Source: Dictyostelium discoideum (lineage: Eukaryota). Taken from it: a DNA stretch of 64,000 nucleotides. Under the pieces are notes generated by a model, which saw only the letters and a program-made list of their open reading frames with translations, did no database searches and had not been told where the DNA came from. The stretch lies in assembly GCA_000004695.1 (NCBI GenBank), contig CM000150.2, forward strand, positions 3,552,001 through 3,616,000. Reading direction: 5' to 3'. Of this stretch, positions 25,684 through 60,888 are shown piece after piece (the stretch's first letter is position 1; each line of letters begins with the position of its first letter). The position numbers and the translations under genes were made by a program.

Positions 25684-25726
25684 TCCACCTCTGAGCCATA
25701 GCTAGCCTAAAGAAGGAAGGGGAAGG

Positions 25727-34234: not shown

Positions 34235-34323
34235 TTATTTTTTTTTATCTTTGATGCACCATTGGCTATTATCTATATCTTTTAACTAATTTTTTTTTAT
34301 TTTTGGAATTAGTTTAAATTAAG

Positions 34324-34355
<32 letters not shown>

Positions 34356-36840
34356 AATAAATTAACATATAATAAGTGCTTACATTTTTTGTATATTCAC
34401 CCAAAGCACCTATAAGAACGTCATTGGAGTCTATTTTTCCTAGAACATTTTGTTTATTTTCGGTTAAGATAATACAATAGATGAGAAGATCTTGACAACC
34501 TGGAAGATATTTAATGATTTTTGAATCTGGATCGTTTGGATAAGCTTTACATATTTCTTTATTTTTTTCATTGTCTGAGAATTCAAATGGTTCTAATTTC
34601 ATTTGGACTTCTTTCAATTGAATGATGTTTTTATTTGTGCTTAATAACAATTTTGTATAGATTTGTTGAACTAATTTGACAGTTTTTAAATCGACATATA
34701 TCCTATCTGGGAAAGGTGAGACTATTGATGGTACGATAACTTCATTGACTATTTCAATAATTGGATGATCAAATTTATCTAATTCAACATCTGTAAATGT
34801 TGATTCAACATAGATATCTTTAAACAATTGGTAAGATTTGGATTTTTCAAAGCTACAAGTGACATCATTATCATCACATAAAATAATTTCCCCTTTGACT
34901 GATGGAAACACATTGAAATCAAAAAACTCTGATTTGTATTTATTTGTTGTAGTTTGTCCTATAAGTTTAGTTAATAATGGAATATAAACATTTTCATATC
35001 CAAAGTTATATTCATTTGCAAATAATTTATCTTCATTGTAAACGATATTAAATGGATTCAAATGATAGTAGTTTTTATCATCTCCATAACCTTTTACCTT
35101 GGTTTCAAAGTCTAGCTTTCTCTTACCTAAAATTGCTCTGAGATCACTTGGATATTTAGTTATTAATACATTTAAATTCAACTTTTGACCTGCAATGCTA
35201 TTTAATCTTAATGATTCTTTTTTAAGATATTGGTTATCCTCTGGGTGTCTAATAATACTAACTCTCCTGTAAAAGTATTCAGAAAGATATTTCATTTTAT
35301 CACTACAAAAAGCACCACCTCCACGTGCCTCTTGCTTTCCTTGCCAATTTAAATCACCAAAGCATATCATTCCACCACCACCACCGCTACCTACTTTATC
35401 TACATCATTGAATTGATAGGACATTTTTGAATGGTCACTTCCTGAATCAGCCCTAATAACTTTTGACCAAGGTGTTTCGAATCTGTAAGAAATATTAATT
35501 GATTCAACTGCTTGAGTAATTGAATTTCTACCTCTTCCTTTCTTTGTTTGAGTATGGACCATTGTTTTAAAATTATTACCATTTGGTAAATCATTTTTAG
35601 AACTATCGATAAAATGCCAAACTATAAAAAATTTGATTCCATCCTTGTGGGCTTCTTTATTTTTTTCACTATACTCTTTATAAAGGTTTATATTTGTTGT
35701 TTGAATGAAGTATCTTCCTTTATCACTCTCATTAATTTTATAATAGTGAACATTTGTTTCTTTAGGTTTTAGATTTGTATCTGATGATGTAATATCTTTG
35801 TTTAGAATTAAATCTGCCTATTTTAAGAATGTTAGTTTGTAATTAATAAACACAAATTTATAATTAAAATTACTTACCAATTGTGACCATTTATTTAAAT
35901 AAATAACTCCATTCCATATATCAGGATCACCATCATTCTTTTTATTATCAAAAATATATTCACTCATTAGACCATCCAATTCTTTAAAAGTTTTGGGAAT
36001 TTTTGTTGCCAAAATTTTACTATCAATTACATCCAAATCAATGACTCCTGTTTTTTTCTTGTCAACCTCTTCTTTGAGGACTTGAGAATACAAAAACATG
36101 GCTGATGATACCCTTTTTGCTCCAGAACCTGGAGAAACTGTATTAATGGTTTGAATATTTAAATTACCATAAATAATATACTTTGGAATAATATGAAGTT
36201 CTTCTTTTGACAAAGTTATACAAATTGAATGCTGCGCGTGTTGACTCTTTAAAGTATTTTCCTTGAAATTAAAAAGAGGTTTATATCCTGTTTCTGGAGA
36301 ATTTGGAACACTGTGAATTACATGAATTCCCCCTTCTTCATTCCAAATGAAAAATCCTTTTGCATGTGCCTTTTTTAACACATGAAATAAATGAAAAAAA
36401 AAGAATTAACAACAACAAATTATAATAAAAAAAAAAAATAAAAATAAAAATTAAAAATTAACACATACACTATTACCACTATTACTGGGTTGATCATTAT
36501 AGGTCAAACTATTATATATAGTTTTACCAGACTTATTTGGATAACTCTGTATGTATGTTGATGTAATTGGGTTTGGCTCATCTGGATTCCTAATATTATA
36601 ATAAGCTAATTCATTAATCACTGGATTCGCCCCATTTAATTCATTATCAGTATAAATAGCACCTTGACTCTGACTCAATTGTTCTAAAACCCACCATTCA
36701 ACATTCTTTTCTCCATCTTTATCTATAAACACCTGACTTTTTGTATAAACATTTTTTGTTGTTATACATTTTGGAGGAACACAATAAATTTGTGATATTA
36801 ATAAAAATAAATATAGAACTATTATATATTTATTTTTCAT
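34235..36840 (-). CDS. Secreted DNase II-like nuclease with long C-terminal extension, paralog 1; exons (complement) 36469..36840, 35878..36368, 34384..35817, 34235..34285
   Basis: Signal peptide MKNKYIIVLYLFLLISQIYC. Both DNase II HxK motifs (KAHAKGFFIWNEEGGIHVIHSVPNSP, and SGSDHSKMSY...GGGAFC close to human DHSKW...GGGTLC). Donors GTATGT, GTAAGT, GTAAGC. A 17-codon terminal micro-exon ends ...QWCIKDKKK*. Confidence 0.75.
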
Positions 36841-37094
36841 TTCTTAGATATATTGTTTTTTTTTTTATTCTAGCATAAAAAAAAAAAAAAAAAAAAAATG
36901 AGACCGTTTTGTTTCAGAAAAAAAAAAAAAAAAATTGATTTTTTTGTGTGAAAAAAAAAAATGAATCTATTTTTGCACTAAAATCTAAATTTGGATTTTT
37001 TTAAAAAAAAAACGAACGAATTTTTTTTTTATTGTTTTCGAGCATCTCTGCAAATCTTTTTTAATTTTTTTTTTACGAAACAGTTCTAAAATGT

Positions 37095-37126
<32 letters not shown>

Positions 37127-37155
37127 CTCAAAAAAAAATTATTAAATCACAGAAT

Positions 37156-39075
37156 ATGTTTTTTTTAAATCATATTTAAATTAATAATATCATTTTTATT
37201 TTTTATTTTATATTGCAATTGTTTCACATTTGGTAGTTACACATTTGATACAAAAAATTGGTCAACAAATTGTGCACTATCATCATGTGTTTTTTATGAA
37301 TTTAATAATAATAATTATTATGATTTAAGTTCTATTGTCCACAATGATCATCAAGGTCCTTACAAAGCAAGTTTTCCTGCCGAACTTCCTGGTGGAATTC
37401 AAACACCTTATACAATGTATTTTAATCCTTGTTTTAATGATAATGTGTGTCCAGGTGGTCTTTCAGTAGGTAAATTCACAAAAAATTCTTAATTCCGTTG
37501 GTTCACTTTCAGAGCCACATTCTATAACATTAAATTCAGAAGGTATTTCTATTGAATATCAATCAGCTCTTTTACCATCAACAACATGTACCTCTAATGG
37601 TAACCGTAGAACTTTGGTTTTATTTATTACTTGTATCCCAACCGAAACATTTAAAATTATTGGTACTTATAACAGAAGAGTATTATGTGAACATACAATT
37701 TATATATCTTCAAAATTAGTTTGTAAAGATAGAGGAATATTATTTAATCAAGGTCTATTTTATGATTTAACACCAATGAAATTGTAAGTTGTTAAATTCT
37801 TTTTTATATTTTTTTTTTATTTCAATTTTTTTTTTTTTTTTGTTTTTAATAAAAAAAAAAAACACCAAACACGAAATTTCAAAATAAAAATAAAAATTAA
37901 AATATCTAACCACTTTTTTTTCAATTTTTTATTTTTTTCTTCCCACAGATTAACAAGCACTTCACACCAAATTACCAACAGTGACCAAACACAAGATATT
38001 CTCTTAATTTATTTGGAAATGTAAATAGATGTGGTACTTTCGGTACATCAACATTAAGTTGTCAATCATGTATTTTAACAGTTGCTAATAAAGCGATCGA
38101 TTATAAACTAGATTCAAGATATGCAACATCACCAAAATCAGTTATGGTAGGATCTCTCAGTCAACCAAGAATTACATTTACAAATGATGGAATAACTATA
38201 ATTTATAGCGCAATAGCAGGCTTCACTGAATGCTCATCAAATGGTAACAAATATTCATCAAAGTATATTTTAATTTGTGATCCATTCACAGAATATTATG
38301 TAGATAAATTTACATTAGAATCACAATGTATTTATCAAATTAAGGTTTATACTAAATACGCATGTCCAACATTACGTTTATTCAAACAAACACAATATTA
38401 TGACCTTTCACCATTGATGTTGTAAGTATTCAATTTATTCTTGTATTTCTTCAAACAGTTATTAATTAATAATAAAATAAATAATAGGGATTCAACAAGA
38501 AATTATACAACAAGTCATATTACAGACGGATATGAGTATAATATTGTATTCAATATTGGTAATAAAGCACAAATGTGTAGCGATGCATTTAATGATTATT
38601 ATTTTGCTTGTCAATATGATCCACGTTATAAAAGTTTTATTCCACTTGCAAAGGCAAGTTTAGGTCAAAGAGTAACATTTGATTTAAATCAAGTTAAATT
38701 CGAATATACTTCACCAATGTCAGGTTGTTTAAGAACTTTTATTATTGTTTTAACTTGTGATGAAAACCAACATTATCAATTAGTTTCAACTTTAGAATCT
38801 CCTGCATGTGTATATACAGTAACAATTAAAACTAAATATGTATGTGAATCAACAATTTATTACAATAGATTCGACTATACATATTATGATATTACTCCAA
38901 TAAAAACGTAAGTTTTAAATTAAATTTGAAATTAAATTTAAATATAAATAATAATAATAATAATATTAATAATCTTTATTGTCAACAACTAAAATATTAA
39001 TTTAATTAGAAAAAAAGATAGTCCAAATAAAATAGATATTGATGTTGGTGGATATCCATATAGAGTAAGTAAATT

Positions 39076-39120
<45 letters not shown>

Positions 39121-42100
39121 AACAAATATTTTTCTAATAGCTTTTTTATGGTATCGGTAATACTGTTGATTATTGCGGAGAACAAGTGGGATCAGTCCCT
39201 GGTGTAGATTATCAAGCTTGTCAATATCTCAGTGGTCTTGTTATTCAAGTCGGTAGTTTAAAAAATACATCAATGATTCTTAATAAGGATGGTATAAGTA
39301 TATATCAAACCTCACCATTCGATTTAACCAAAGTGTGCCAAAATACAAGATATCAAAGAGTAAACATTTTAAATATGGTATGTGATCCAACAGCAACAAA
39401 TGATGTGGTTAGCGCTACTGAGACTGCCAACGATTGGGCATGTGAATATACAATCGAAATTAAAACTAAATATGAATGTTCAATTAATTATGCACCAGTA
39501 TTACCGGTTGTTGGAAATCCATGTTCATACAGTTGTACACCACCAGGTGCTTTAAATCCAAAAGATATAGTTAGTGTACTTTTAAATTTAGGTGTTTGTT
39601 CTCAGAGATTAATAAATATGGTACAGGTGCAATCATTACTTAATATATTTAAAGATACTTGGGTTTCAAATCACAATGGGTATGATGATTGGATGGGTGG
39701 ACAACTTTATTCACTATTATTAACAGGTAAACCACAGTCAACAATTTCACCATATGTTATTTCAATTACACATGATAATTTAAGTACATATGGTACCAAT
39801 GGGTTAAGTAAAGCAAAAAATTCAATCAATGATTTTCTTACTATTACAAATGATCTTCTTGAAATTTCAAATCGTGCAGCCAGTTCAACCGTTACCAAAT
39901 ATACATATTCAGATGGAGCAATTACATAAACTTTTATCAACATCAACTGGAGGTCTTGCAATTATTAAATACAAAAATTTGCTATGCTACTATTCAATAG
40001 TCCCAAATTTACAAACTTTAATTATTGGGAGTTATTTGCTTTCTTGCCCATATTATTCACTACCAACTATACAGTGCACAGTTTAACACCATCAATAGGG
40101 AAAGTTGGAGATACTATCACAATTAATGGTCAAAATTTAGATACAGATATATATGATGTTTATTTCAACATTATTGATGACAACAGTAAAATTAAAGCAA
40201 CAATAACATCAAGAACCGTAAGTTTTGTAAAAGTAATTGTTCCAAATGGTTTTGGTTATGCATTAGTCTACACTCAAAATATACTTAATCCAACTACCTC
40301 TGATAAACTTTCATTTTCATATCCATCACCAGCGATTGTCAAAGTAATTAGTCAACCATTTAGTACAGATATCATCAATAGATTCTTTGTTATTGGTCAA
40401 AACCATCGTTCTTTAATAACCAATATTGTTATTAATCCATACATCGATAATATTGAAAAAGAAGCAATTTATTGTGAAATTGTTGTCGGTAAACAAGCGT
40501 CAAAGACTATATATCCAAGTGATTTAGATGAAAATCCAACAAATTATAATTTATATTATTATCCCCCAGCAGTTGTTGACATATCAGAAGTTTCAACTGA
40601 TGGTGGTGAAGTTATAATAAAAGGTACAAATTTTATTCCAGCCTCGCTTAAAGATCAAATTAATAATCAACCAATAATCGGTTCACCACATTCAGTAGAG
40701 TTTAATAATGTTTTATCTTCATCATGGACATGGATTGATTCAACACATGTAGAAGCCATCGTACAAAAAGGTATTGGTACAATCTCTACAATTGTAAATG
40801 TTGGTGGTCAAAGATCTGATTTAAATCCAATTCCTGTAAATTTTTACAAAAGACCTGAACTAGATAATAAAAAATATGAAAACTTTGCAAATAGTGATAT
40901 TTTAATAACTGGTTCTAATTTTGTGCCAGTTGGTTTTTCAGCAGGTTCATCAAGTTCTGTCAAAATTGGAGGTATTCCCTGTAACTCTGTAACATGGGTA
41001 GATTCAAAATCTGTTATTTGTAATGTGCCAATTGGAACTGGTGATAATTTAAATATCATCAAAAAACCGAATTAAATGATTATTTCTCATATTTAGGGCA
41101 ATGCGATTTCCTCTGTAGCGATTTATCAAATTTAGTAAGTTTTTAAACATTTTAATTACAGAAAAAAAAAAAAAAACTAAAAAATACTAATTTATTATCA
41201 TTTTTATCTCAAAGGAATTAGCAAAAGTTATTAGAGAGAATAAAAAAGATTTAAAGAGTACTCTTTTATTAACAGGTGTATGTTTAGAACAAATCGAGCA
41301 ATATAATTTCACAGATATTAATGATGAAATTGAATCAAGTTGGATTGAAAACTCAATTATTAATGATTGGACAAGTGGTAAATTCTATAATTATTTTAAA
41401 TCATCAGAATCATACTCAACAGTTAAAACACTTGCAAAATATATTACTCCAAAGAATCCATGTATTTATGATAATAAAAGAGTAAAGAATTCATTAGATT
41501 ACCATTTTGAAATCAATTCAGATATTTTCCATTTAATTGAACTTTCAATTTCATCAAAAATCAGTTATCCAGATTCACCATATGAAACTTATTTCTATGA
41601 ATCATCAAGCAACCCAGAGTATGGTCTTTCAATTATTACATTTGATTCAGCAATTTGTAGCTTTACAGAATCAACTATTCAAGACTATCAAAGTGGAAAA
41701 GAATTACAATCATGTTCAATCATTCCAATTATAAATCAAGTAATTAATCCAACAACAACACTTCAAGCACCATATCAATATTCACTTACAATTATTGGTA
41801 GATTATTTGATAGTTCAACTAGAATATTTTTATCAGGTTATGAATGTCCAATCATTGGTAATATCGCTACTAATCAAAATGATTATATTCAAACTCTTAG
41901 TTGTTCAGTACCACCAGAAATCGAATCATACTCGCCCTCTCAAATTAGTTTTTACAATGATTATAGTGAAAATAATATATAGAATATGAAGATGGATCTG
42001 ATGAAATTGTTGTTAAATTTAATAATGAACCAACAGCTATCATTGAAAACACAGAAACATACATTAAAATTAAAACCCTTAGTGGTGATGAATTTAATGT

Positions 42101-43487
42101 ACCAATTGCTGTAGAATTAAACGGTCAAATAAGTAATACAGATACTTCATTCGTTTACTCAAATCCAATAATTGAAAGTGTAACACCATCATCAAGTAGC
42201 TCAAAATCAAATACTAATATCATCATTAAAGGACAAAATCTTGGATATTTAACAAACACTCCCAAAATTACAATTGGAAGTAGTAATTGTTTAAATATCA
42301 AAACTATATCTCCAAATGAAATTCATCGTTATGAAATCAAGCGCAGGCACTAAACAATTAACATTAACCTATGAAAGTTATCAACCAACCTATTCACAAT
42401 TCACTCACAAAAACGATGATGACAGTGATAGCCACGATGATGATGATGATGACCATAAAAACAATAATGGACCAAAAAACACCATATTAAGTATTCTTGG
42501 AGGTATAATTGGAGCAGCAGCATCAGCGGCCGTAAGTGGATTTATAACAAGCATTTTCGGTGGTGCGACATCAGTAGCTACAGCAGCAGCAACAGCAACA
42601 GCTATTGCCGGTGCAATTACCGAAGGTGTTGCAGTGGCCTTTACAGGGGTATCAGTAATAGCAGCAACAGCAGGTGGTATTGTTATTACTTCAATTGTAA
42701 CAGCAACAGCCATCCTTATTTCAGGTGGAAGTACACAATCACCAAACCCAACGCCAACCGATAACTATTGGGTAAGATGTATGGTCGATTATTCAAGATT
42801 AACTTTACAAGTCGATAATCTTTACGGTCAAGATATAGTATGGATTGATGGTAATGGAATTTCATCAATTTTCAAAGAATCATTCTCTTGTAAACCTGAC
42901 CTTATTAACGATGGTATGATATGCACTCAACAACATCAAAATGGAACAAATTCAACAACCACATTTGGTAATTCAACATTAATTTGTCATATTGACCCAA
43001 CAAAATCATGTGAAATTTCACCACCATTCATCATACCATCCGATCCAATTGAAGATGATGAATATTCAAATATTTTAGAATGTCAATATAATCTCATTGA
43101 AAATTCATTATCAACACACTCTAATAATAGTCCATTAAGATGTTATAATAATGAAACTGAAAATTACTTCACTATGAATACTACACTTTCATGCTCAAAA
43201 GATGAATCATTAAGTCAAGATAAATATACGATTTCTTGTTTATCAGATACAGATGATACCCAAATCTTTTTCTATAAGAACTCAATTACATGCATTACAG
43301 ATTATCCATACTATAAATGTACAATAAAAATTAGTTAACGACTGGAACTAATGCTGAATGTCCAAAAAATGAAAAAGAACTTCATTATGATCTTTCAACT
43401 TCTCTAACATGCACAGATTATATCACACTTAAAAACTCCACTTATTCAATTTCATATTCAAATTACATTTGCATTAAAACAAAATAA
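37156..43487 (+). pseudogene. Degenerate, internally deleted copy of the giant MRH/IPT-repeat gene (paralog of 47415..57732)
   Basis: Colinear with 47.4-57.7 kb at roughly 85-95% nt identity. Defects: corrupted start and signal peptide (ATGTTTTTTTTAAATCAT...TAA); 17 nt deletion in exon 1; 1 nt deletion in exon 2; 11 nt deletion after ...SDGAIT; missing roughly 480 nt IPT unit; loss of roughly 3.9 kb of IPT repeats (joins at 41990); 22 nt and roughly 100 nt deletions near the 3' end. Only fragment ORFs remain. Confidence 0.75.
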
Positions 43488-43512
43488 AAACAATTAAAAA
43501 ATTTTAAAAAAC

Positions 43513-43592
43513 AAAATGATATAATAATTTAATGAAATAATTTAATTACTATTTTTACTATTTTTATTTTCGAAAAACTGTAATTAAATTAT
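43513..43592. repeat. Perfect 23 bp inverted repeat (ATTTAATGAAATAATTTAATTAC / GTAATTAAATTATTTCATTAAAT) with 31 bp spacer
   Basis: Read directly. Lies between the convergent 3' ends of the IPT pseudogene (+) and DNase paralog 2 (-). Confidence 0.8.
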
Positions 43593-43721
43593 TTCATTAA
43601 ATCATTATGTCACACCACCCAAAATTCAATTCTGAAAACTTTTTTTTTTATTTAATTACCCTTAATAAAAAATTAAATGTGAAAATAAATGTTATATTTA
43701 TTTTAGTATTGTTTTTTTTTT

Positions 43722-45990
43722 TTATTTCTTAGTGCACCATTTGGTTTTATCTAATTTTGAAAACTAAAAAAAAAAAAAAAATTTATTTTTGGAATTAGTT
43801 AAATTTAAAAAAAAATAAATTTTTGGGATAGTTAAATTTAAAAAAAAATTTAAATTAAAATATAATTAATACTTACATCTTTGGTATATTCACCCAAAAC
43901 TTTTGTAAATTCCTCAATGGAATTGATGTTTTGTAGATCACCATGTTTATTTTCAGTTAAGAGAATACAATAGATAAGATGATCTTGGCAATCTGGATGA
44001 TAATTAATGATTTTTGAGTCTGTATCACTTGGATAAGCTTTACATATTTTTTTATTAATTTCATTGTAATCCTTATCATCATGACCTTCTTCGCTATCAC
44101 TTTGATCGCCTTCGATTTTATTTGGGAATTTAAATGGTTCTAAATCATCTTTGATTTTAACTTCTTTCAATTGAATGATGTTTTCATTTTTAATAAATTT
44201 CAATTTTTTATAAAGTTCTTTTACTAAATCAATATTTTTTAAATCGATATATATCTTATCTGGGAAAGGTGCGAGTATTGATGTTGGTTCGATAACGGTA
44301 TTTTGTGTTATAGCAGTTATCGTTTCTTTACCATCTTTATTTTTTGATGAGGTAACTGTTAATGTTGATTCAACATAGATATCTTTAAACAATTGGTAAG
44401 ATTTGGATTTTTCAAAGCTACAAGTGACATCATCATTATCATCACATAAAATAATTTCCCCATTGATTGATGGAAACACATTGAAATCGAATAACTCTGA
44501 TTTGTATTCATTTGTAGTTTGATCCTTAAGTTGAGTTAATAATGGAATGTAAACATTGTCATAACCATAGTTATATTCATTTGAAAATAATTTATCTTCA
44601 TCTTTTTCATTATTGTAAACGATAATAAATGGATTCAAATGATAGTATTTTTCATCATCTCCATAACCTTTAACCTTGGTTTCAAAGTCTAACTTTCTGT
44701 TACCTAAAATTTTATTTAGATCCTTTGGATATTTAGCTATTAATCCGTTTAAATTCAACTTTTGACCTGCAATGCTATTTAATCTTAATGATTCTTTTTT
44801 AAGATATTGATTATTCTCTGGGTGTCTAATTATACCAACTCTTCTATAAAAGTATTCAGAAAGATATTTCATTTTATCACTGCAAAAAGCACCACCTCCA
44901 CGTGACTCTTGCTTTCCTTGCCAATTTAAATCACCAAAGCAAATAGTCCCACCACCGCCACCGCTATCTACTTTATCTATATTATTGAATTGATAAGAAA
45001 TTTTTGAATGGTCACTTCCTGAATCAGCACTAATAACTTTTGACCAAGGTGTTTCGAATCTGTAAGAAAGATAAATTGATTCAACTGCTTGAGAAATTGC
45101 ATTTTCACCTTTTGTAATCTTTGTTTGAGTATGGACCATTGTTTTAAAATTATTACCATTTTTAAAATTATCTATATAATGCCAAATTATAAAAAATTTA
45201 ATTTTTTCCTTGTGAGTTTCTTCAATTTTTTCATTATACTTTTTATAAAGGTTTTTATTTGTTGTTTGAATGAAGTAATCCCCTTTATTTTTACTCTCAT
45301 AAATTTTATTATAGTGAACATTTGTTTCTTTAGGTTTTAGAGTTAAATCTGATGATGTAATATCTTCGTTTAGAATTAATTTTGCCTATTTTAAGAATGT
45401 AAGTATGATGATTTATTAACACAAATTTATAATTAAAATTACTTACCAATTGTGACCATTTATTTAAATAAATAATTCCATTCCATATATCAGGATCACC
45501 ATCATTCTTTTTTTTAACCAAAATATAATCACTCATTAGACCATCCAATTTTTTAAAAGTTTTGGGAATTTCTTTTGCTAAATTTTCAATTACATCCAAA
45601 TTAATGACTCCTGGGCTTATCTTTTCAACCTCTGTATGGAGATTTTCGGAATAAAGATTGGCTGATGATACCTTTTTAGCCTTTTTACCAAGTCCTGTTG
45701 AAACTGTATTAATGGTTTGAATATTTAAATTACTATAAATAATATACTTTGGAATAATATGAAGTTCTTCTTTTGACAAAGTTATACAAATTGAATGTTG
45801 AGCATGTTGATTATTTAAAGTATCTTTGTCGTAATTAAAAAGAGGTTCATATCCTGTTTCTGGAGATTTTGGAACACTGTGAATTACATGAATTCCCCCT
45901 TCTTCATTCCAAATGAAAAATCCTTTTGCATGTGCCTTTTTTAAATAAATAAATTAAAAAAAAAAAATATGTTAACAAATAATGATAACC

Positions 45991-46021
<31 letters not shown>

Positions 46022-46413
46022 AAATAATAAACACAAACACTATCGGAACCACCACTGATCTGATCATTATAAGTCAAACTATTATATATAATTTTTTTAG
46101 ATTCATTTGGTAAACTCTGTTTGTATGTTGATGTAATAGGGTTTGGTTCTTTTGGATCTCTAATATTATAATTTGCAATTTCATTTATCTCTGAACTTCC
46201 TCCTTTTAATGTGTTATCAGTATAAATAGAACCTTTACTGTGACCTAATTGTTCTAAAAACCACCATTCGACATTCTTTTCTATTGTAACCCCATCCCCA
46301 AATACTTGACCATCCTTGTAAATATTTTTTGTTGTTATACATTTTGGAGGAACACAATAAATATGTGATATTAATACAAATAAATATAGAAAAATAATAT
46401 ATTTATTTCTCAT
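43722..46413 (-). CDS. Secreted DNase II-like nuclease with long C-terminal extension, paralog 2; exons (complement) 46039..46413, 45447..45935, 43877..45385, 43722..43763
   Basis: Same architecture as paralog 1. Signal peptide MRNKYIIFLYLFVLISHIYC. AHAKGFFIWNEEGGIHVIHSVP and DSGSDHSKISY...GGGAFC motifs. GTTTGT, GTAAGT, GTAAGT donors. Terminal micro-exon FSKLDKTKWCTKK*. Confidence 0.75.
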
Positions 46414-46483
46414 TTTCTTAAGTCTAATGTTATAATGTTTCAATTTTTTAATGGTATAAAAAAAAATTGGGTGTGTTTTTGCG

Positions 46484-46514
<31 letters not shown>

Positions 46515-49250: not shown

Positions 49251-49336
<86 letters not shown>

Positions 49337-52300
49337 CTTTATTAACAACCAAAACTATTAATTTTAATTAGAACGAAAGATAGTCCAAAAACTGTAGATA
49401 TTGTTGTTGGTGGATATCCATATAAAGTAAGGGATAATTTTTAAAATTTTTTTTTTTTTTGTTTTTTTTTTTTTAAACAAACATCAAACGTGTCAAACTG
49501 AAATTTAAATATTTTATGTATATATTTAAAAATATTTACTAACTTTACTTTATTAATTTTTTATAACAGCTTTATTACAGTATAGGTAATACTGTTAATT
49601 ATTGTGCAAATCAAGTGGAGTCAGTTCCAGGGGTTGATTATCAAGCTTGTCAATATCTCAGCGGTCTTGTTATTCAAGTCGGTAGTTTAAAAAATACATC
49701 AATGTATCTAAGTAATAATGGTATAAATATATATCATACTACACCATTTGATTTAACCAGAGTATGCCAAAATACAAGATATCAAAGAGTGAACTCTTTA
49801 AATATGGTATGTGATACAACAGCAATAAACGTTGTGGTTAGCGCGACTGAGACTGCCGATGATTGGGCATGTATATATACAATCGAAATTAAAACCAAAT
49901 ATGCATGTCCAATTAATTATGCACCAGTATTGCCAGCTGTTGGAAATCCATGTTTATACAGTTGTACACCACCAGGTGCTTTAAATACAAAAGATATAGT
50001 TAGTGTACTTTTAAATTTGGGCGTTTGTTTCTCAGAGATTAATAAATATGGTACAGGTGCACAATCATTACTTGGTATATTCAACAATACTTGGGTTTTA
50101 AACCACAATGGATATGATGATTGGATGGGTGGACAACTTTATTCACTATTATTAACAGGTAAACCACAAACATCGATTTCACCATATGTTATTTCAATTA
50201 CACATGATAATTTATGTACATATGGTACCAATGGGTTAAGTAAAGCAAAAAATTCAATCAATGATTTTCTTACTATTACAAATGATCTTCTTGAAATTTC
50301 AAATCGTGCAGCCAGTTCAACCGTTACCAAATATACATATTCAGATGGAGCAATAACATTATCAACACATAAACTTTTATCAACATCAACTGGAGGTCTT
50401 GCAATTATTAAATACAAAAATTTGCTATGCTACTATTCAATAGTTTCAAATTTACAAACTTTAGTTATTTCGAATTATTTGCTTTCATGTCCATATTATT
50501 CACCAACCATTACATTGTACAGTTTAACACCACCAACAGGGAAAATTGGAGATACTATCACAATTAATGGCCAAAATTTAGATACAAATAGATATGATGT
50601 TTATTTCAACATAATTGACGACAACAGTAAAGTCAAAGCAACAATAACATCAAGAACCGTAAATTCTGTAAAAGTAATTGTTCCAAATGGTTTTGGTAAT
50701 GCATTAGTCTACACTCAAAATATACTTAATCCAACTACCTCTGATAAACTTTCATTTTCATATCCATCACCAGCGATTGTCAAAGTAATTAGTCAACCAT
50801 TTAGTACAGATATCATCAATAGATTCTTTGTTATTGGTCAAAACCATCGTTCTTTAATAACCAATATCACCATTTATCCATACATCGATAATATTGAAAA
50901 AGAAGCAATTTATTGTGAAATTGAAAAGTATTGTCCAAGTTCATCAAAAATTCCATCAATTCCAGAATCAGCAGTAGGTCATCCATGTATTAATTCAACA
51001 GTTTACTCTGAGAATTCCCAGTTTTTCGATTATTCCAAGTATGATGTTTTTGTTTGTATCAAATCATCATTAGGTGTTGGAAGTGGTATCATTAAATTCC
51101 CATCACAAACATTTACATTTGCATACTCTTATAAAGCACCTCTCTTATATTATACACAACCTGGCATTCGTATTCCAACCGATGGTGGTAGTTTTCAATT
51201 GAGTGGTAAAAACTTTCCACCAACACAAGAAATCATTGATCTCGGTTTAAACACATCTGTAATCATTTGGAATAATGATAATTTTGTTACATTCAAAGGA
51301 ACAAATCTTACAAGCACCAATATCAATTGGAAGAGTTCTAAATCGATTTTATGTGTTGCACCACCAGGTTTCGGTGGACCATTCATCGTTACGGTAACTG
51401 TCGGTAAACAAGCGTCAAAAACTATATATCCAAGTGATTTAAATGAAAATCCAATAGATTATTATTTATATTATTCTCCACCAACTTTGCTCGACATATT
51501 AGCAGTTCCAACTGATGGTGGGGAAACTATAATAAAAGGTACAAATTTTATTCCAGTCTCGCTTGCAGATCAAATTAATAATCAATCATTAATTGGTTCA
51601 CCAAATTCAGTCACGTTTAATAATGTTTTATCTTCATCATGGAAATGGATTAACTCAACACATGTAAAAGCCATCGTACAAAAAGGTATTGGAGCAATCC
51701 TTACAATTGTAAATGTTGGAAGCCAAAGTACTGAAACGAGTCCATATCCCGTAATTTTTTATAAACAACCTGAATTAGATAATAAAAAATATGAAAACTT
51801 TGCAAATAGTAATATTTTAATAACTGGTTCTAATTTTGTACCAGTTGGTGTTTCAGCAGGTTCATCAAGTTCTGTCAAAATTGGAGGTATTCCTTGTAAC
51901 TCTGTAACATGGGTAGATTCAAAATCTGTTATTTGTAATGTACCAATTGGAACTGGTGATAATTTAAATATCCAAGTAACAGTTGGAGGTCAACAAACCG
52001 AATTAAATGATTATTTCTCATATTTAGGGCAATGCGATTTCCTCTGTAGCGATTTATCAAATTTAGTAAGTTTTTAAACATTTTAATTACAGAAAAAAAA
52101 AAAAAAACTAAAAAATACTAATTTTTTACATTATAATCTCAAAGGAATTAGAAAAAGTTATTAGAGAAAATAAAAAAGATTTAAAGAGTACTCTTTTATT
52201 AACAGGTGTATGTTTAGAACAAATCGAGCAATATAATCTCACATATATTAAAAATAAAATTGAATCAAGTTGGATTGGAAGTTCAATTATTAATGATTGG

Positions 52301-55300
52301 ACAAGTGGTAAATTCTATAATTATTTCAAATCATCAGAATCATACTCAACAGTTAAAACACTTGCAAAATATATTACTCCAAAGAATCCATGTATTTATG
52401 ATAATAAAAGAGTAAAGAATTCATTAGATTACCTTTTCGAAATCAATTCAGATATTTTCCATTTAATTGAACTTTCAATTTCATCAAAAATCAGTTATCC
52501 AGATTCACCATATGAAACTTATTTCTATGAATCATCAAGCAACCCAGAGTATGGTCTTTCAATTATTACATTTGATTCAGCAATTTGTAGCTTTACAGAA
52601 TCAACTATTCAAGACTACCAAAGTGGAAAAGTATTACAATCATGTTCAATCATTCCAATTATAAATCAAGTAATTAATCCAACAACAACACTTCAAGCAC
52701 CATATCAATATTCACTTACAATTATTGGTAGATTATTTGATAGTTCAACTAGAATATTTTTATCAGGTTATGAATGTCCAATCATTGGTAATATTATTAC
52801 AAATCAAAATGATTATATTCAAACTCTTAGTTGTTCAGTACCATCAGAAATCAAATCATACTCGGCCTCTCCAATTAGTTTTTACAATGGTTATAGTGAA
52901 AATAATATATATAATTTCTTGTTGGATTTTAAAAAATCATTCTTTTTTATATATCCAATTTCAACAGTAACTCAAATTCAATACCCATCAAGTGGTCCAA
53001 TTCAAATGAATTCTGAAATTAAAGTAATTGGTTTTAATTTCTTCCCATATGGTATTACAAATCCAAGCATTCAAGTTTTTATTGATGATCTTGAATTAAC
53101 AGGTACTATCTTTGGATTAACAAGCATAAATGGAGTTGATTCATTTTCATTTATTGCTTCTGGTTTAGGTTCTTTAAAGTATGTAAAAAAAAAAAAAAAA
53201 TTAAAAAAAAAATTAAATTATTAATATTTAAAATATATTTTTTTCAAAGTTACATTCAATTATTTTATAGTGATAGTTTACCAATGATTATAAACGATGA
53301 TATTAATTTAGAATTTTCATTTGAAAGACCAATTGTTAATAGTATATTACCAACAAATGGAGATTACAATACAAAGGTTACAATTAATGGTAATAATTTT
53401 AGAAAAGGTCAATCAGTAAAAATTGGAGACATATTAGTAAATGATATTGAATTCATTTCAAATCAAAAGATTATTGTTTCAGCACCATTTGGATTTATTA
53501 ATGGACTTGTAGTTGTTTATTCAGATGATCAATACAGTTTAGAAGAAATATCATTTAGTTATCCTTCACCAATTATAGACCAAGTCATTCTTTCAAATTA
53601 TGAATCAAAATTAAACACAACAGGTACAAATTATTTCACAGTAATAGGTAGAGGTTTAGGTACATACATTGCAGAACAAGTCGATATTATTATTAACCAA
53701 GAGTTTTATGCAAGTTGCGAATTCGATTTCTGTGAAAGTTTAGAAATTATTGAAGATATAGATATAAAAGATCAAGGAATTTGTCAATATTTAAAATATA
53801 AAAATTATCAATATATCGATGAAAACTTTGATATATTAAATTGTATTTTAGCTGATTCGATTGGTAAAGATAAATCAATCAGTATCAAAATTTCAGAATT
53901 CCAAAACCAAACTTTCACCTACTCTTATTATGAACCATGGATTGAAAAATTAACACAAAACTCTTCATCAGCAACAACTGATGGTGGTGAAGTTATCGTT
54001 ATAAATGGTTACAACTTTTTACCATTCGAAAATTTAAGTCCATACTATGAAAACAATGAAACTATTGCACAATGGTTAAATCAATCAGAAATATTAATTG
54101 GTGAAAGCTATCTTTGTCAATCAATTAATTGGACCAATTCCTATGAATTAAATTGTACAATCCCACCGGGAATTGGTGTTAATCATACAATCATTGTAAA
54201 AGTAGGCCTTCAATCATCAAATCATACTGATTATTTGTATTCTTACGATCCACCAAAACTTGATACAATCAATAATTCCACCAAAAATGAGACACATTAC
54301 TATTCTTCAACAGATGGTAACAATGAAATTATAATAACAGGTAATAACTTTATTCCAAAAGAGTTATCAGATCATTACAACCAGAATGAAAATAAAACTA
54401 TAAATTCAATACTATTAGGTAAACAATATTGTAATGAAACTATTTGGATTAATTCAACAATAGTTAAATGTAAACCATTAGCAGGTATTGGGTCAAATTA
54501 CAAAATAAACATTAAAGTTGGTAATCAAAATTCAAATGAAACCATTTACTTCTCATATGAGAAGCCAATTTTAGATTTAAAGAATTACACAGGTTCAACA
54601 AATGGTAATACTGAAATTACAATAACAGGTATCAACTTTATTCCAAAAGAATTAGCAGATAATAATAATTTCAATCAATCAGAGAACTATATAATGATTG
54701 GTGATAATAAATGTAATGAAACTATTTGGATCAATTCAACAACAGTTAAATGTAAACCAATATCAGGTACTGGTACCAATCATAGAGTTATCATAACAGT
54801 TGGTAATCAAAACTCAAATGAAACGGTCTACTTTTCATATGATAAACCAATTTTAGATATTAAAAACTATAGTAGTCCAACTGATGGCAATACTGAAATC
54901 ACAATTACAGGTGAAAACTTTATTGAAAATTATAATCAAGAAAAACATAATGAAAATGATAATTTCGTTAGAATCGGTGAAAATAAATGTAATGAAACAA
55001 AGTGGATAAATTCGACAACAATTAAATGTAAATTAATTCAAGGTATTGGTTTAGATTATAAAATAGTTGTAACAGTCGCCAATCAACAATCAAATGAAAA
55101 TGTTTTCTTTTCATATGAAAAACCAATGATTGATAGTAAAACACTATTAGCATCAACCAGTGGTAGTGAAACTATTAAAATTACAGGTACCAATTTCATT
55201 CCATCAACTTTAGTAGAACATTACAACAAAGAAGAAAATAAAGATAACTCAATAAATTCAGTTACTATCAATAACGAGTTTTGTAATGATATTACATGGA

Positions 55301-57732
55301 TTAACTCAACAGAACTAACATGTAAACCATTAGCAGGAGTTGGAACTAATCATACTATATTCATTTTGGTTGGAACTCAAAAATCAAATCAAGTAAAATC
55401 ATTCTCATATAAACCTCCAAAGATTGAAGAGTTTAAATACTACACAGCACCAACACATTCCAATAAAATTATTACTATAACTGGTGAAAACTTTATTCCA
55501 ATCGAATTATTATCAAAAGACAACAGCAATAGTTCAGTACTCATTGATAATATAAAATGTGAAGAAATCAAATGGATTGATTCTACAAAAGTTTCATGTC
55601 AAGTTCCAGTAGGTCAAGGTAAAGATTTATCGATTAAAGTTAAAATTGAAAATCAAGAAACTGAAGAAAATCAACAATTTTCATATGATAAACCATTTAT
55701 TCAATCAATCAATCCAAATAAAGGAAGATGTAATCAAGAAGTATTAATTACAATTCAAGGTGATAGTTTTGGAAAGAGTGATCAACTAATTAAAATTGGT
55801 AATAACGAATGTCAAGATATTCAATTCTATCCAAATCATACATTTACATGTAAAGTTCCAATCGTGGAGAATTCAATTAAATCCATTGTTTTATTAAATG
55901 TTGGAAATCAAGATTCAAACGATAACATTACATATAAATACTATGGACCACCAGAAATTAAAAGTATTGGTTTACCATCATATCTTTCATTCAAAGGTGA
56001 TGATTTAATAACAATCATTGGTAATAACTTTATAGAATATGATGATGGATCTGATGAAATTGTTGTTAAATTTAATAATGAACCAACAGCTATCATTGAA
56101 AAAACAGAAACATCTATTAAAATTAAAACTCTTAGTGGTGATGAATTTAATTTACCAATTGCTGTAGAATTAAATGGTCAAATAAGTAATATCGATACTT
56201 CATTCGTTTACTCAAATCCAATAATTGAAAGTGTAACACCATCATCAAGTAGCTCAAAATCAAATACTCATATCACCATTAAAGGACATAATCTTGGATA
56301 TTCAACAAACACTCCCAAAATTACAATTGGAAGTAGTAATTGTTTAAATATCAATACTATATCTCCAAATGAAGTTCGTTGTATAGTGTTGAAATCAAGC
56401 GCAGGCACTAAACAATTAACATTAACCTATGAAAGTTATCAACCAACCTATTCACAATTCACTCACAAAAACGATGATGACAGTGATAGCCACGATGATG
56501 ATGATGATAAAGACAATAATGGACCAAAAGATACCATAATAAGTATTATCGGAAGTGCAATTGGAGCAGCAGTATCAGCAGCCATAAGTGGACTAATAAC
56601 AAGCATTTTCATTGGTGGAACATCAGTAGCCACAGCAGCAGCAACAACAACAGCAACAGGTACCGCGATTGCAACAGCAACTACAGCGTCAACAGCAACA
56701 GCTATTGCCAGTGCAACGACCGAAGGTGTTGCAGTAGTCTTTACAAGGGTATCAGTAATAGCAGCAACAGCAGGTGGTGTTGTTATTACTGCAATTGTAA
56801 CAGCAACAGTCATCCTTATTTCAGGTGGAAGTACACCATCACCAACTCCAACTATAACTCCAACTATTTCACCAACTCCAACACCAACCGATAACTATTG
56901 GGTAAGATGTATGGTCGATTATTCAAGATTAACTTTACAAGTCGATAATCTTTACGGTCAAGATATAGTATGTATTGATGGTAATGGAATTTCATCAATT
57001 TTCAACGAATCATTCTCTTGTAAACCTGATCTTATTAACGATAGTATGATATGCACTCAACAACATCAAGATGGAACAAATTCAACAACCACATTTGGTA
57101 ATTCAACATTAATTTGTCATATTGACTCAACAAAATCATGTGAAATTTCACCACCATTCATTATACCATCCGATCCAATTGAAGATGATGAATATTCAAA
57201 TATTTTAGAATGTCAATATAATCTCATTGAAAATTCATTATCAACACACTCTAATAATAGTCCATTAAGATGTTATAATAATGAAACTGAAAATTACTTC
57301 ACTATGAATACTACACTTTCATGCTCAAAAGATGAATCATTAAGTCAAGATAACAATACGATTTCTTGTTTAGCAGATACAGATGATACTCAAATCTTTT
57401 TCTTTAAGAACTCAATTACATGCATTACAGATTATCCATACTATAAATGTACAATGAAATCTGAACCATCACAAGATGATAACATAATTCCAGAACCAAC
57501 ATTACCACCAACTCCATCAATTGATGATGATTCCACATGTATTTATGATTCAGCCAATCCATATTCAATAGATCTCCAACCAACGATTGGAACTAATGTC
57601 AAATGTCCAACAAATGAAAAAGAACTTCATTATGATCTTTCAACTTATCTAACATGCACAGATAATACCACCCATAAAAACTCCACTTATTCAGTTTCAT
57701 ATTCAACTTATGTTTGCATTAAAACAAAATAA
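47415..57732 (+). CDS. Giant secreted/transmembrane protein (about 3200 aa): signal peptide, 4 MRH-like domains, about 20 IPT/TIG repeats, long Ala/Thr/Gly hydrophobic segment, Cys-rich C-terminal domain. Exons 47415..48049, 48234..48710, 48795..49232, 49372..49426, 49570..52065, 52145..53178, 53271..57732
   Basis: Signal peptide MVKFKIVVSFLLFILYCNCFTFG. MRH-like units end ...RRTMILVITCDPNE...VLCEHTIYIASKLVC, ...KYILICDPF...QCIYQIKVYTKYACP, ...RTFIIVLNCDENQ...CVYTVTIKTKYVCES, ...VNSLNMVCDTT...WACIYTIEIKTKYACP. Many IPT/TIG units of form P.I..I...S..GGT.ITI.G.NFIP......I..G...C....W.NST.I.C..P. Introns (GTAAGT donors) keep phase. Exon 52145..53178 is open for 1034 nt but has no ATG/GTG/TTG, so it is absent from the ORF track. 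Ends TAA at 57730-57732. Confidence 0.7.
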
Positions 57733-58257
57733 AAACAATTAAAATAATTTTTAAAAAAAAATAAAAAATAAAATGAGATAATGGTTTTATCAATAATTTA
57801 ATTTGATACAAAATTCATTTTTAGTGTTTTTACATGTATAACATTTTAATTATTGTTTACTAATATTAATATTAATTATTCCTCTGAATATTTCTAATTA
57901 ATTTTAATTTTTTGAATAAAAAAACTAAATTAACCTTTTTGTAACATTCAAGAGGTCAAGTTATAGCTAACTATCCAATTAATACTTTATTAATAGTAAT
58001 AGTAAAGGTAAAAGAAAAATTAAAAATGAAATAGAAAAACTAGAAAAAGATAAACAGGATGAAATTAAAAATTAAAAAAATGATAAATTCAATGGTTTAA
58101 ATCAAAAAGAATAATTAGAAAATCTGGCTACAGTAATTCAATTATGGCAACCATCTTCATATTTTCAAGCTTCATTTTTTTATTTGATTAACCATTAAAA
58201 AATAATTAAATGTGAAAATAAATGTGATATTTATTTTAAAATAGAATTTTTTTTTTT

Positions 58258-60888
58258 TTATTTCTTAATGCACCATTTGGTTTTATCGAATTTTGAAAAC
58301 TAAAAAATTTTATTTTTGGAATTAGTTAAATTTTAAAAAATTAAATTAAAATAAAATATATTTAATACTTACATCTTTGGTATATTCACCCAAAACTTTT
58401 CTAAACTCTTCAATGGAATCGATATTTTGTAGATCACCATGTTTATTTTCTGTTAAGAGAATACAATAGATAAGATGATCTTGGCAATCCGGATGATAAT
58501 TAATGATTTTTGAATCTGTATCACTTGGATAAGCTTTACATATTTTTTTATTAATTTCATTATAATCCTTATCATCATGACCTTCTTCGCTATCACTTTG
58601 ATCGCCTTCTTTTGGGAATTTAAATTTTTCTAAATCTTCTATATTGACTTCTTTCAATTGAATGATGTTTTCATTTTTTTTAAAATTCAATTTTTCATAG
58701 AGTTCTTTAACTGAATTCACAGTTTTTAAATCGATATATATCTTGTCTGGGAAAGGTGTGACTGTTGATGTTGGTACAACAATTGTATTTTCTGTTTCAT
58801 CTTTTACACTTTTATCTTTTTTTAAAGTAACTGTTAATGTTGATTCAACATAGATATCTTTATACAATTGGTAAGATTTGGACTTTTCAAAGCTACAAGT
58901 GACATCATTATCATCACATAAAATAATTTCCCCATTGATTGATGGAAACACATTGAAATCAAAAAACTCTGATTTGTATTTATTTGTTGTAGTTTGATCC
59001 TTAAGTTGGGTTAATAGTGGAATATAAACATTGTCATAACCATAATTATATTCATTTGAAAATAATTTATCTTCATCTTTTTCATTATTGTAAACGATAA
59101 TAAATGGATTCAAATGATAGTATTTTTCATCATCTCCATAACCTTTAACCTTGGTTTCAAAGTCTAGCTTTCTGTTACCTAAAATTTCTTTGAGACTATT
59201 TGGATATTTAGTTATTAATCCGTTTAAATTCAACTTTTGACCTGCAATGCTATTTAATCTTAATGATTCTTTTTTAAGATATTGATTATTCTCTGGGTGT
59301 CTAATTATACCAACTCTTCTGTAAAAGTATTCAGAAAGATATTTCATTTTATCACTACAAAAAGCACCACCTCCACGTGCCTCTTGCTTTCCTTGCCAAT
59401 TTAAATCACCAAAGCAAATAGTCCCACCACCGCCACCACTATCTACTTTATCTATATTATTGAATTGATAAGAAATTTTTGAATGGTCACTTCCTGAATC
59501 AGCACTAATAACTTTTGACCAAGGTGTTTCGAATCTGTAAGAAAGATAAATTGATTCAACTGCTTGAGAAATTGCATTTTCACCTTTTGTAATCTTTGTT
59601 TGAGTATGGACCATTGTTTTAAAATTATTACCATTTTTAAAATTATCTATATAATGCCAAATTATAAAAAATTTAATTTTTTCCTTGTGAGTTTCTTCAA
59701 TTTTTTCATTATACTTTTTATAAAGGTTTTTATTTGTTGTTTGAATGAAGTATCTCCCTTTATCACTTTCATAAATTTTATTATAGTGAACATTTGATTC
59801 AAGAGGATTTAGAGTCGGGTTTGATGATGTAATTTCTTGGTTTAGAATTAATTCTGCCTATTTTTTAAGAATATTAGTTTGGTAATTTAAAAACACAATT
59901 TTAAAAATATAAATTTCTTACCAATTGTGACCATTTATTTAAATAAATAACTCCGTTCCATATATCAGGTTCATTTCCAACAATAATATGGTCCTTCATT
60001 AGGTTATCCAATTCAATAAAAGTTTTGGGAGGTTCAATTTTACTATTAATTGTTTCCAAATTAATGACATTTTGGTTCTTACGGTCAAGCTCAGTTTTGA
60101 GGTATTCTGAATAAGAATTGGCTGATGATACCCTTTTTACCTTTTTAAAAACTGTATTAATGGTCCGAATATTTAAATTACTATAAATAATATACTTTGG
60201 AATAATATGAAGTTCTTCTTTTGACAAAGTTATACAAATTGAATGTTGAGCATGTTGATTATTTAAAGTATGTTTGTCGTAATTAAAAAGAGGTTCATAT
60301 CCTGTTTCTGGAGATCTTGGAACACTGTGAATTACATGAATTCCCCCATTTTCATTCCAAATGAAAAATCCTTTTGCATGTGCCTTTTTTTAGATAAATA
60401 AAAAAAATAAAAAAAAAATAAAAATATTAGAAAACTATTAACAACAAATAATAATCAAAAAAAAAAAAAAAAAAAAAAAAAAAGATAAAATAATTAACAC
60501 AAACACTATCATCACCATTACTGGGTTGATCATTATAAGACAAACTATTAAATAAAATAGCACCAGATTCATTTGGTATACTCTGTTTGTATGTTGATGT
60601 AATCGGGTTTGGTTTTGTTGTATTTGGATCTCTAATATTAAAATCAACTATTTCATTAATCTCTGAATTCATTTCTTTTAATGTGCTATCAGTATAAATA
60701 GCACCTTTACTGTGACTCAATTGCTCTAAAAACCACCATTCCACATTCTTTTCTTTAGAATCTCCATCTCCAAATACCTGACTATCCTTGTAAACATTTT
60801 TTGTTGTTTTACATTTTGGAGGATCACTACAATAAATCTGTGATATTATTACAAATAAATATAAAAATATTATATATCTATTTCTCAT
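58258..60888 (-). CDS. Secreted DNase II-like nuclease with long C-terminal extension, paralog 3; exons (complement) 60505..60888, 59922..60383, 58383..59857, 58258..58299
   Basis: Same four-exon architecture. Signal peptide MRNRYIIFLYLFVIISQIYC. Both HxK motifs. Middle exon 9 codons shorter than paralog 2. Terminal micro-exon FSKFDKTKWCIKK*. Confidence 0.7.

Follow-up and report, generated by a model that had tools for sequence, protein, structure and literature searches.

The closest described relatives of the genes treated here are the receptors and other lectins built from MRH domains, the enzymes of the DNase II family and the Tgr self-recognition proteins of Dictyostelium. The locus lies in a 64,000-nucleotide stretch of the Dictyostelium discoideum genome (assembly GCA_000004695.1, contig CM000150.2, positions 3,552,001 to 3,616,000 of the forward strand), referred to below as the window, and is a tandem array in which genes for DNase II-like nucleases stand head-to-head with copies of a giant gene for a protein with MRH and IPT/TIG domains. 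The lysosomal enzymes of Dictyostelium carry phosphomannosyl markers and, to our knowledge, no Dictyostelium receptor that reads these markers has been identified, a receptor of the mannose 6-phosphate receptor (MPR) type having long been sought without success. The MRH fold is a flattened beta-barrel of ~150 residues held by a conserved framework of cysteines; in MPRs, the mannose-binding residues are Gln, Arg, Glu and Tyr, and the MPRs that work in trafficking are type I receptors with sorting signals in a cytoplasmic tail. DNase II enzymes are endonucleases of the phospholipase-D type that act at acid pH and independently of cations. The active site of DNase IIα has the canonical sequence DHSK, and the family is defined by two variant HKD motifs of the form H-x-K, one per half of the domain (PMC4148230). 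The tgrB1 and tgrC1 genes are transcribed divergently from one promoter (PMC12745789), and their divergent arrangement was correctly given in a preliminary description of the locus made from the sequence alone.

The genes of the window are already in the AX4 reference under automatic domain names and are uncharacterised, and in the literature that we searched neither the cassette and its arrays nor the extended family of DNase II enzymes nor the MRH-TIG architecture is described. We put at about even the chances that the locus is a lineage-specific two-gene cassette, variable in copy number, whose predicted products would belong to the secretory or endolysosomal pathway and would serve in vegetative feeding or defence.

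The tandem array and its gene pairs

The window has an A+T content of 75-84%. Locus tags beginning with ACTFIT_ are those of the long-read D. discoideum assembly GCA_054883475.1, in which contig JBTAPE010000039.1, reverse-complemented, corresponds to the window. The assembly is one of a set of ten long-read genomes of Dictyostelium, the laboratory strain AX2-214 among them (PMC12745789), and, judging from proteins identical or nearly identical to those of AX4, most likely represents that strain; it is called AX2 in the comparisons below. The layout of the AX4 genes was inferred from protein identity and the order of accessions.

Comparison of the window with itself (BLASTN) revealed a tandem segmental duplication, unit A (34345-43821) matching unit B (43840-58347) with 81-97% identity, followed by a partial unit C (58302-60931) that matches with 84-89% identity and includes the nuclease gene only, with no giant. 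Each unit opens with a nuclease gene on the minus strand (Table 1), the first of which has its stop codon exactly at 34235 and the third its ATG exactly at 60888. The preliminary description had proposed three DNase II-like paralogues, each transcribed divergently from a large neighbour, in a module that was duplicated and decaying. Spliced open reading frames (ORFs), Pfam matches and orientation agree with this arrangement, and the gene models and copy comparison confirm that the neighbours of copies 1, 2 and 3 are, as proposed, a dead giant, an intact giant of 3198 amino acids (aa) and an unrelated gene, respectively. The decay, too, is evident from the units themselves and from the lesions in one giant copy. 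The ORF facing nuclease copy 3 has no Pfam match and no similarity to the cassette.

Table 1. Positions of the array genes and intergenic regions in the window
Feature	Position	Strand	Basis or remark
Nuclease copy 1	34235..36840	-	Spliced model, Pfam, exact look-up
Head-to-head intergenic region, unit A	36841..37155	.	Holds promoter block
Giant pseudogene, copy A	37156..43487	+	tblastn and alignment to copy B
Nuclease copy 2	43722..46413	-	Spliced model, Pfam
Head-to-head intergenic region, unit B	46414..47414	.	Internally duplicated
Intact giant, copy B	47415..57732	+	7-exon model; exact AX4 match
Nuclease copy 3	58258..60888	-	Tail-to-tail with intact giant; head-to-head with unrelated ORF
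Region upstream of nuclease copy 3	60889..61440	.	Without the promoter block of the paired modules
Unrelated ORF facing nuclease copy 3	61441-63579	+	Pfam and similarity check

Nuclease copies 2 and 3 share 88% identity overall, with identical runs of 105-197 nt (44100-45400 versus 58600-59860), and codons ~330-450 are almost identical (nonsynonymous and synonymous divergence, dN and dS, both 0). These near-identical tracts point to gene conversion between members of the array. The array has expanded by unequal crossing-over and has since partially decayed. An assembly artefact as the cause of the duplication was ruled out, as the same proteins are found in the independent AX4 reference and in the long-read assembly.

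The giant in unit A is dead. A 7-nt insertion straight after the ATG leads to a stop after 7 codons, and high-scoring tblastn segments switch frame within single exons of copy B. Alignment to copy B revealed frameshifting deletions of 17, 1, 11, 16, 5 and 115 bp and an insertion of 2 bp, at least six of these changes being uncompensated, as well as larger deletions of ~474 bp and ~3.1 kb that remove parts of the TIG region. In the source annotation, ACTFIT_007563 (713 aa) and ACTFIT_007562 (1032 aa) both fall on this copy as separate genes, with artificial introns placed over the frameshifts, and the two should be read as one pseudogene. ACTFIT_007972 (1321 aa), in a second array described below, looks like the same artefact of annotation.

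The giant MRH-TIG protein

The intact giant gene consists of seven exons (47415-48049, 48234-48710, 48795-49232, 49372-49426, 49570-52065, 52145-53178 and 53271-57732) separated by six GT-AG introns. An exact look-up found its 3198 aa product to be identical over the full length to AX4 XP_002649199.1 (UniRef C7FZW8), which has the database name 'IPT/TIG domain-containing protein', and the gene model is thus validated. A signal-type N-terminus is followed by four MRH repeats (MRH1-4, to ~50004), a linker, a first TIG block (~50500-52044), a 280-aa stretch without TIG repeats, a second TIG block (~52721-56475) and an acidic stretch. The protein ends with two hydrophobic segments (~56530-56841; ~aa 2799-2832 and 2864-2902), a Pro/Thr linker and a Cys-rich domain (56842-57729) of 298 aa with 16 Cys and 10 N-glycosylation sequons. 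The predicted product is a very large membrane glycoprotein of the lectin/TIG kind. Neither sequence nor hydropathy made a cytoplasmic sorting tail evident after the hydrophobic segments, and the linker, the middle region and the C-terminal domain gave nothing credible in Pfam at E up to 1.

The TIG domains were found by Pfam with E = 3.5e-110. A hidden Markov model (HMM) trained on the repeats themselves found 15 clear repeats and, by inspection, a further ~3-4 degenerate ones lie in the gaps, making ~18 in the two blocks; hence, the earlier estimate of about 20 was fair. The combination of MRH domains with such a number of IPT/TIG repeats, as originally proposed, is upheld by Pfam, by a profile search of the Protein Data Bank (PDB), by a fold search and by the HMM repeat count.

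The MRH repeats are ~150 aa long and each starts with its own exon, the fourth being split by one more intron; six cysteines are invariant across them. Pfam PRKCSH_1 scores 27.5-27.9 bits against a cut-off of 23, and is above the cut-off for MRH3, and the relative P0047 has precomputed matches to both CIMR and PRKCSH_1. When a profile of the four repeats was compared with the PDB, the cation-independent MPR (CI-MPR) was matched at E = 2e-16, best in its carbohydrate-binding domains 9 and 3, followed by ERLEC1 (4e-6) and glucosidase II β (0.03). An AlphaFold2 model of MRH4 (predicted local distance difference test score, pLDDT, 63) has nine strands, and the best 45 Foldseek matches in the PDB are all MRH structures, including those of the cation-dependent MPR (CD-MPR) and CI-MPR at probability 1.0. 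In an alignment to domain 9 of CI-MPR, the sugar-binding residues are all present in MRH4 (4/4), while MRH3 has 3/4 (Glu replaced by Thr) and MRH1 and MRH2 have 1/4 each.

Relatives of the N-terminal MRH region were found only in genomes of the D. discoideum complex, by a word-indexed search that seems to miss very long proteins: searches with fragments of the giant returned 3-4 short proteins and not the giant itself. A long (AAT)n microsatellite, roughly 90 bp in length, lies in intron 3 (49233-49371), and no alignment of copies A and B was reported across the corresponding interval (A 38973-39125, B 49300-49555).

An extended family of DNase II-like nucleases

Nuclease gene models were spliced at conserved GT-AG junctions, which gave three open frames of ~790-800 aa. 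Copy 1 (4 exons, 782 aa) is AX4 DDB_G0270642, recovered by exact look-up under both its AX4 and its ACTFIT accession. Copy 2 (ACTFIT_007548, 804 aa) corresponds to AX4 DDB_G0270958, with 1 mismatch in 792 aa, and shares 99.6% identity with protein P0001 over 795 aligned aa, the differences lying at splice-site choices. Copy 3 (ACTFIT_007547, 790 aa) corresponds to AX4 DDB_G0270644.

All three score far above the Pfam threshold for DNase_II (PF03265), with 128-141 bits against a cut-off of 23 and E values of 1e-37 to 1e-41 (6.3e-41 for copy 1), so that the family assignment made in the preliminary description stands; the region of the second catalytic motif gives a separate DNase_II score. Both H-x-K motifs are found in 3/3 copies, AHAKG at 36369-36355, 45935-45921 and 60383-60369 and DHSK at 35436-35425, 45013-45002 and 59488-59477 in copies 1, 2 and 3, respectively, together with the signature CxGDLN...RGGG.FC. 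The residues H127/K129 and H414/K416 are invariant in 15/15 dictyostelid family members, at identities down to 27%. A single nuclease sequence found no match in the PDB, and a profile of the family matched, marginally and in the region of the second motif, a DNase II of Burkholderia (E=0.022). An AlphaFold2 model of the full protein built from a 15-sequence alignment had a mean pLDDT of 48, too poor for a fold search.

Residues 1-22, followed by ...IYC/VPPKC, are the sole strongly hydrophobic window of the nuclease by hydropathy and would be its signal peptide. At the other end lies an extension of ~330 aa with conserved cysteines (encoded at ~43853-44848 in copy 2), which is restricted to this dictyostelid family: a HMMER scan of 1.84 billion representative proteins returned 2 matches, both of them family members, and Pfam gave nothing credible at E up to 1. 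The nuclease is apparently an active acid DNase with a novel appendage, as far as its motifs allow prediction. The idea of a nuclear, recombination-promoting role, modelled on a speculation about the tgrBC hotspot (PMC12745789), is unsupported; the signal-type N-terminus and the DNase II family speak otherwise.

The pair in other loci, strains and species

A second array lies ~1.1 Mb away on the same contig, where a giant of 3197 aa, a nuclease, a decayed giant of 1321 aa, another nuclease and a giant of 3382 aa follow one another in this order, and its AX4 counterparts are DDB_G0270480, named 'MRH domain-containing protein' in UniProt, and DDB_G0270848. Head-to-head modules are kept in D. cf. 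discoideum ACTFIY and ACTFIZ, two cryptic sister species, as are decayed giant fragments. In the wild D. discoideum isolate ACTFIW, a single module is visible beside the flanking genes that adjoin copy 1 in AX2, and copy number therefore differs within the species. In D. dimigraforme (L004), a nuclease orthologue with 51% identity faces the wreck of a giant, in which an MRH2 piece, a TIG scrap, remnants of the hydrophobic segments and the C-terminal Cys domain can be recognized (6269-9446); the pair thus predates the split from D. dimigraforme. These remnants are interrupted by an unrelated 258-aa ORF (7787-8563) that, by eye, resembles a fragment of an amidohydrolase of the dihydropyrimidinase/hydantoinase type.

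Conservation of the two genes as neighbours, on which the preliminary description had made its case depend, is thus found in the second array, the wild isolate, two cryptic species and the D. dimigraforme remnant. The pair is old and recurrent, and of its two members it is the nuclease that always survives; giant copies have been destroyed repeatedly, through frameshifts as well as large deletions in the TIG region. The two-gene cassette is so far known only from the D. discoideum species complex, plus the D. dimigraforme wreck.

A different arrangement occurs in D. firmibasis (L009, CM069767.1), where three DNase II-family paralogues of 734-741 aa form a tandem array (665-12454). The small gene alternating with them has no signal peptide and an exon with the sequence MNILPSSGNLLVELTLTATKYLFNKDG..., and this is a second two-gene repeat unit on the same nuclease family.

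A sequence block shared by the head-to-head intergenic regions

The head-to-head intergenic regions have in common a conserved block of ~200 bp within very AT-rich DNA, with the core AACGAACGAA. Where chance would give 0.01 occurrences of this core, the 64-kb window has 3, and 3/3 are in the paired intergenic regions, at 37011-37020 in unit A and at 46573-46582 and 47147-47156 in unit B, where there are two because the region is internally duplicated. In every paired module of the other loci it is found 159-182 bp upstream of the nuclease ATG, with 1 mismatch in the wild isolate. It is absent upstream of the two unpaired nucleases, namely copy 3 and a dispersed copy on another chromosome (L007), which have a different upstream sequence in common. 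This distribution fits a shared bidirectional promoter.

The internal duplication in unit B (~570 bp) has copied, along with the promoter block, ~80 bp from the start of exon 1 of the giant (~46893-46970; region 46858-46990). The stray exon copy includes the signal-peptide start MVKFKIVISFLLFILYFNCFTFGS, then diverges and soon reaches a stop.

Rates of evolution

Rates were estimated from Nei-Gojobori counts, which are crude in a genome of 75-80% A+T. Between AX2 and ACTFIW, the flanking gene for an Afi1/SPA-domain protein has a dN of 0.007 and a dS of 0.059 (dN/dS 0.12), the giant a dN of 0.026 and a dS of 0.093 (dN/dS 0.29), and the AX2 nuclease copies a dN of 0.078-0.14 and a dS of 0.11-0.17 (dN/dS 0.69-0.84). 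In five other comparisons of the giant, dN/dS was 0.26-0.41 with no region above 1, and the three nuclease copies of the window gave 0.52-0.89 when compared with each other. By region, the AX2 and ACTFIW giants share 94-98% aa identity except in the acidic/hydrophobic stretch (75%). The giant had been described as polymorphic-looking, and this is contradicted by its dN/dS of 0.29 and by its high identity outside that one stretch; it is the nuclease that evolves faster (0.5-0.9).

Over nine nuclease copies, pN/pS is 0.65, falling to 0.2-0.36 in the catalytic-motif regions and reaching values >= 1 in residues 226-330, within the DNase II domain, and 616-660, within the extension. All nuclease ORFs are intact and there are at least 8 disabling lesions in a giant pseudogene of similar age, which argues that the nuclease has been selected to stay functional. 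These counts indicate that the nuclease is kept functional while its surface changes quickly, and its high dN/dS would stem from an arms race or from a relaxation of constraint once the gene was duplicated.

What the cassette may do, and the alternatives

If the two genes form a functional cassette, both products would enter a secretory or endolysosomal route, their expression presumably being coordinated by the bidirectional promoter. Working at acid pH, either in acidic compartments or outside the cell, the nuclease would break down bacterial or extracellular DNA, and the giant would be a lectin receptor of the surface or of endosomes, whose ligands may be glycosylated hydrolases, the neighbouring nuclease possibly among them. 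The suggestion of a vegetative role comes from the paralogue in the second array, DDB_G0270480, which is 95% identical to the giant of the window. It is among the genes mutated in a study of dedifferentiation, the return to feeding, where a focused screen was aimed at genes whose expression rises strongly at an early stage of dedifferentiation and is minimal in development; in AX2, its knock-out induced PCNA like the wild type (PMC7190356). The origin of this mutant in such a study points to vegetative biology. A search of the literature and its supplements for the gene identifiers found this paper only and no expression tables.

A much bolder version, which we regard as a long shot, makes the giant an MPR-like lectin that captures glycosylated acid hydrolases, in the first place the adjacent DNase II, to retain them at the surface or deliver them to phagosomes; the locus would then be a module of an enzyme plus its own receptor, evolving in an arms race with bacterial or extracellular DNA, such as that of biofilm matrix or DNA traps, at stake. 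Were the giant such a lectin, Dictyostelium would gain an MPR-type receptor. Should the two genes simply work together, the inheritance, duplication and regulation of a hydrolase and a lectin receptor as a single cassette would be unusual among eukaryotes, and the locus would be relevant both to what Dictyostelium does with bacterial and extracellular DNA and to the long search for a reader of its phosphomannosyl markers. Even if they are not coupled, the locus documents rapid turnover of copy number outside the tgr genes, with a nuclease that is kept and diverges and a giant that is repeatedly lost.

Several observations weigh against a functional cassette. The set of Gln, Arg, Glu and Tyr is complete in MRH4 only, and even there the ACTFIY orthologue has Gln in the position of the Glu, so lectin activity of the giant is no more than plausible. 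The nucleases carry only 1-3 N-glycosylation sequons. Nucleases 1 and 3 are intact although neither faces a live giant, the dispersed nuclease on another chromosome has only a 3' giant fragment behind it, no giant was found near the relatives in D. purpureum, and the distant paralogues of D. firmibasis form arrays with an unrelated small gene. The dN/dS values are simple counts confounded by paralogy and gene conversion, and expression, localisation and enzyme activity of the window genes are predictions.

Some of these points fit an accident of adjacency, in which unrelated genes that happened to lie head-to-head were copied together by unequal crossing-over, the nuclease family being prone to tandem expansion. 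We take this for the main rival and think it possible, if on the unlikely side. The D. firmibasis arrays, where the alternating gene lacks a signal peptide, suggest that tandem duplication carries along whatever neighbour is present; intact nuclease ORFs stand beside dead giants at copy 1 and in D. dimigraforme, and the frames of copy 3 and the dispersed nuclease are still open though both have lost the shared promoter and partner. In addition, hhalign found no similarity between the nuclease extension and the C-terminal domain of the giant (probability 0.1), and a shared interaction module between the two was dropped as a candidate for that reason. However, chance adjacency does not readily account for a head-to-head order and a specific promoter block that persist in D. 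discoideum, in two cryptic species and in two arrays, nor for a remnant pair in D. dimigraforme despite a nuclease identity of only 51%, and putative secretory signals on both products, with a lectin receptor beside a typically glycosylated hydrolase of lysosomal type, make a plausible match. Less probable still is a conflict module, in which the secreted nuclease would serve in an arms race, as a weapon or in reply to one, against bacteria, the DNA of biofilms, DNA traps or rival amoebae, and the giant would present it, deliver it or guard against it. A nuclease dN 11-20x that of the flanking gene with the catalytic residues invariant, pN/pS >= 1 in two surface-type segments and copy number that varies between strains would all be expected of such a module, and there are precedents in the expanded secreted DNase II-like families of Trichinella and in the toxin plancitoxin (PMC4148230). 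Yet a dN/dS of 0.5-0.9 is also compatible with a relaxation of constraint following duplication, the locus has no small cognate immunity gene, secretion of the nuclease to the outside is presumed from its sequence and the giant is under ordinary purifying selection.

The allorecognition or greenbeard locus favoured in the preliminary description, with the giant as a polymorphic recognition cue in the manner of the Tgr proteins, draws on the IPT/TIG domains of the giant, on a divergent pair with one common intergenic region, as for tgrB1/tgrC1, and on duplicated loci with one truncated partner, as for tgrBC (PMC12745789). This we consider very improbable. The dN/dS of the giant is 0.26-0.41 over all comparisons with no region above 1, its partner is a nuclease and not a second TIG receptor, and its architecture differs, with four MRH domains and two hydrophobic segments in a protein of 3198 aa that shows no cytoplasmic tail; Tgr proteins are several times smaller. 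Curated tgrC1 sequences are only 65-70% identical across isolates and species (PMC12745789) against the 94-98% of the giant outside its acidic/hydrophobic stretch, and its 95%-identical paralogue comes from a screen aimed at minimal developmental expression (PMC7190356). The nuclease partner, the slow evolution of the giant, its non-Tgr architecture and the non-developmental screen together lead us to abandon the allorecognition reading: the locus is not a Tgr-type pair. A secretory or endolysosomal cassette remains our preferred reading.

Other elements in the window

A full-length long terminal repeat (LTR) retrotransposon occupies 19120-26116. Its 390-bp direct repeats (19120-19509 and 25727-26116) are 100% identical, suggesting recent insertion, and it encodes a 387-aa ORF without a Pfam match (20236-21399) and a 1397-aa pol with reverse transcriptase, RNase H and integrase. 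In the stretch examined from the wild isolate (L010), the annotation shows the 256-aa gene and the GH31 gene with no ORF of a retroelement between them. A 1144-aa ORF on the minus strand (15457-18891) matches RVT_1 (E=5e-37) and, as there are no LTRs nearby, is probably a non-LTR retrotransposon; it has the LTR element on one side and, on the other, a gene for a GH31 glycosidase (12485-14431). The segments 6117-7024 and 7618-8488 form a local tandem duplication with 86% identity, the second copy overlapping a fatty-acid-hydroxylase ORF at 7885-8529 (Pfam FA_hydroxylase, E=2e-26) and the ORF of the first copy lying at 6496-7074.

Comparison with known systems

Like the other members of the DNase II family (lysosomal DNase IIα/β and plancitoxin), the nucleases have both variant HKD motifs, including the C-terminal DHSK followed by CxGDxN...RGGG..C, and a putative signal sequence at the N-terminus. 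They are twice the usual DNase II size because of the ~330-aa C-terminal extension. Expansion by tandem duplication is shared with the DNase II-like family of Trichinella spiralis, though there 1/125 genes is reported to keep the HKD motif (PMC4148230), whereas both motifs are found in 15/15 members here.

With the MPR-type lectins (CI- and CD-MPR, Drosophila LERP, the Trichomonas TvMPRs with five MRH domains, OS-9, XTP3-B and glucosidase II β), the giant shares tandem MRH domains, four in number, after a signal peptide and a conserved cysteine framework. It differs from the MRH lectin receptors in that these domains are fused to ~18 IPT/TIG domains, that its C-terminus consists of two hydrophobic segments and a Cys-rich glycosylated domain with no recognisable sorting tail, and that 3/4 of its MRH domains are without one or more of the binding residues.

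TgrB1 and TgrC1 are likewise transmembrane proteins with extracellular IPT/TIG domains, and their genes are likewise a divergent pair with a shared promoter region and an often-truncated duplicate partner, subject to rapid gene turnover between isolates (PMC12745789). Here, however, the TIG protein is the conserved partner, and the giant's paralogue is linked to dedifferentiation and feeding, not to aggregation.

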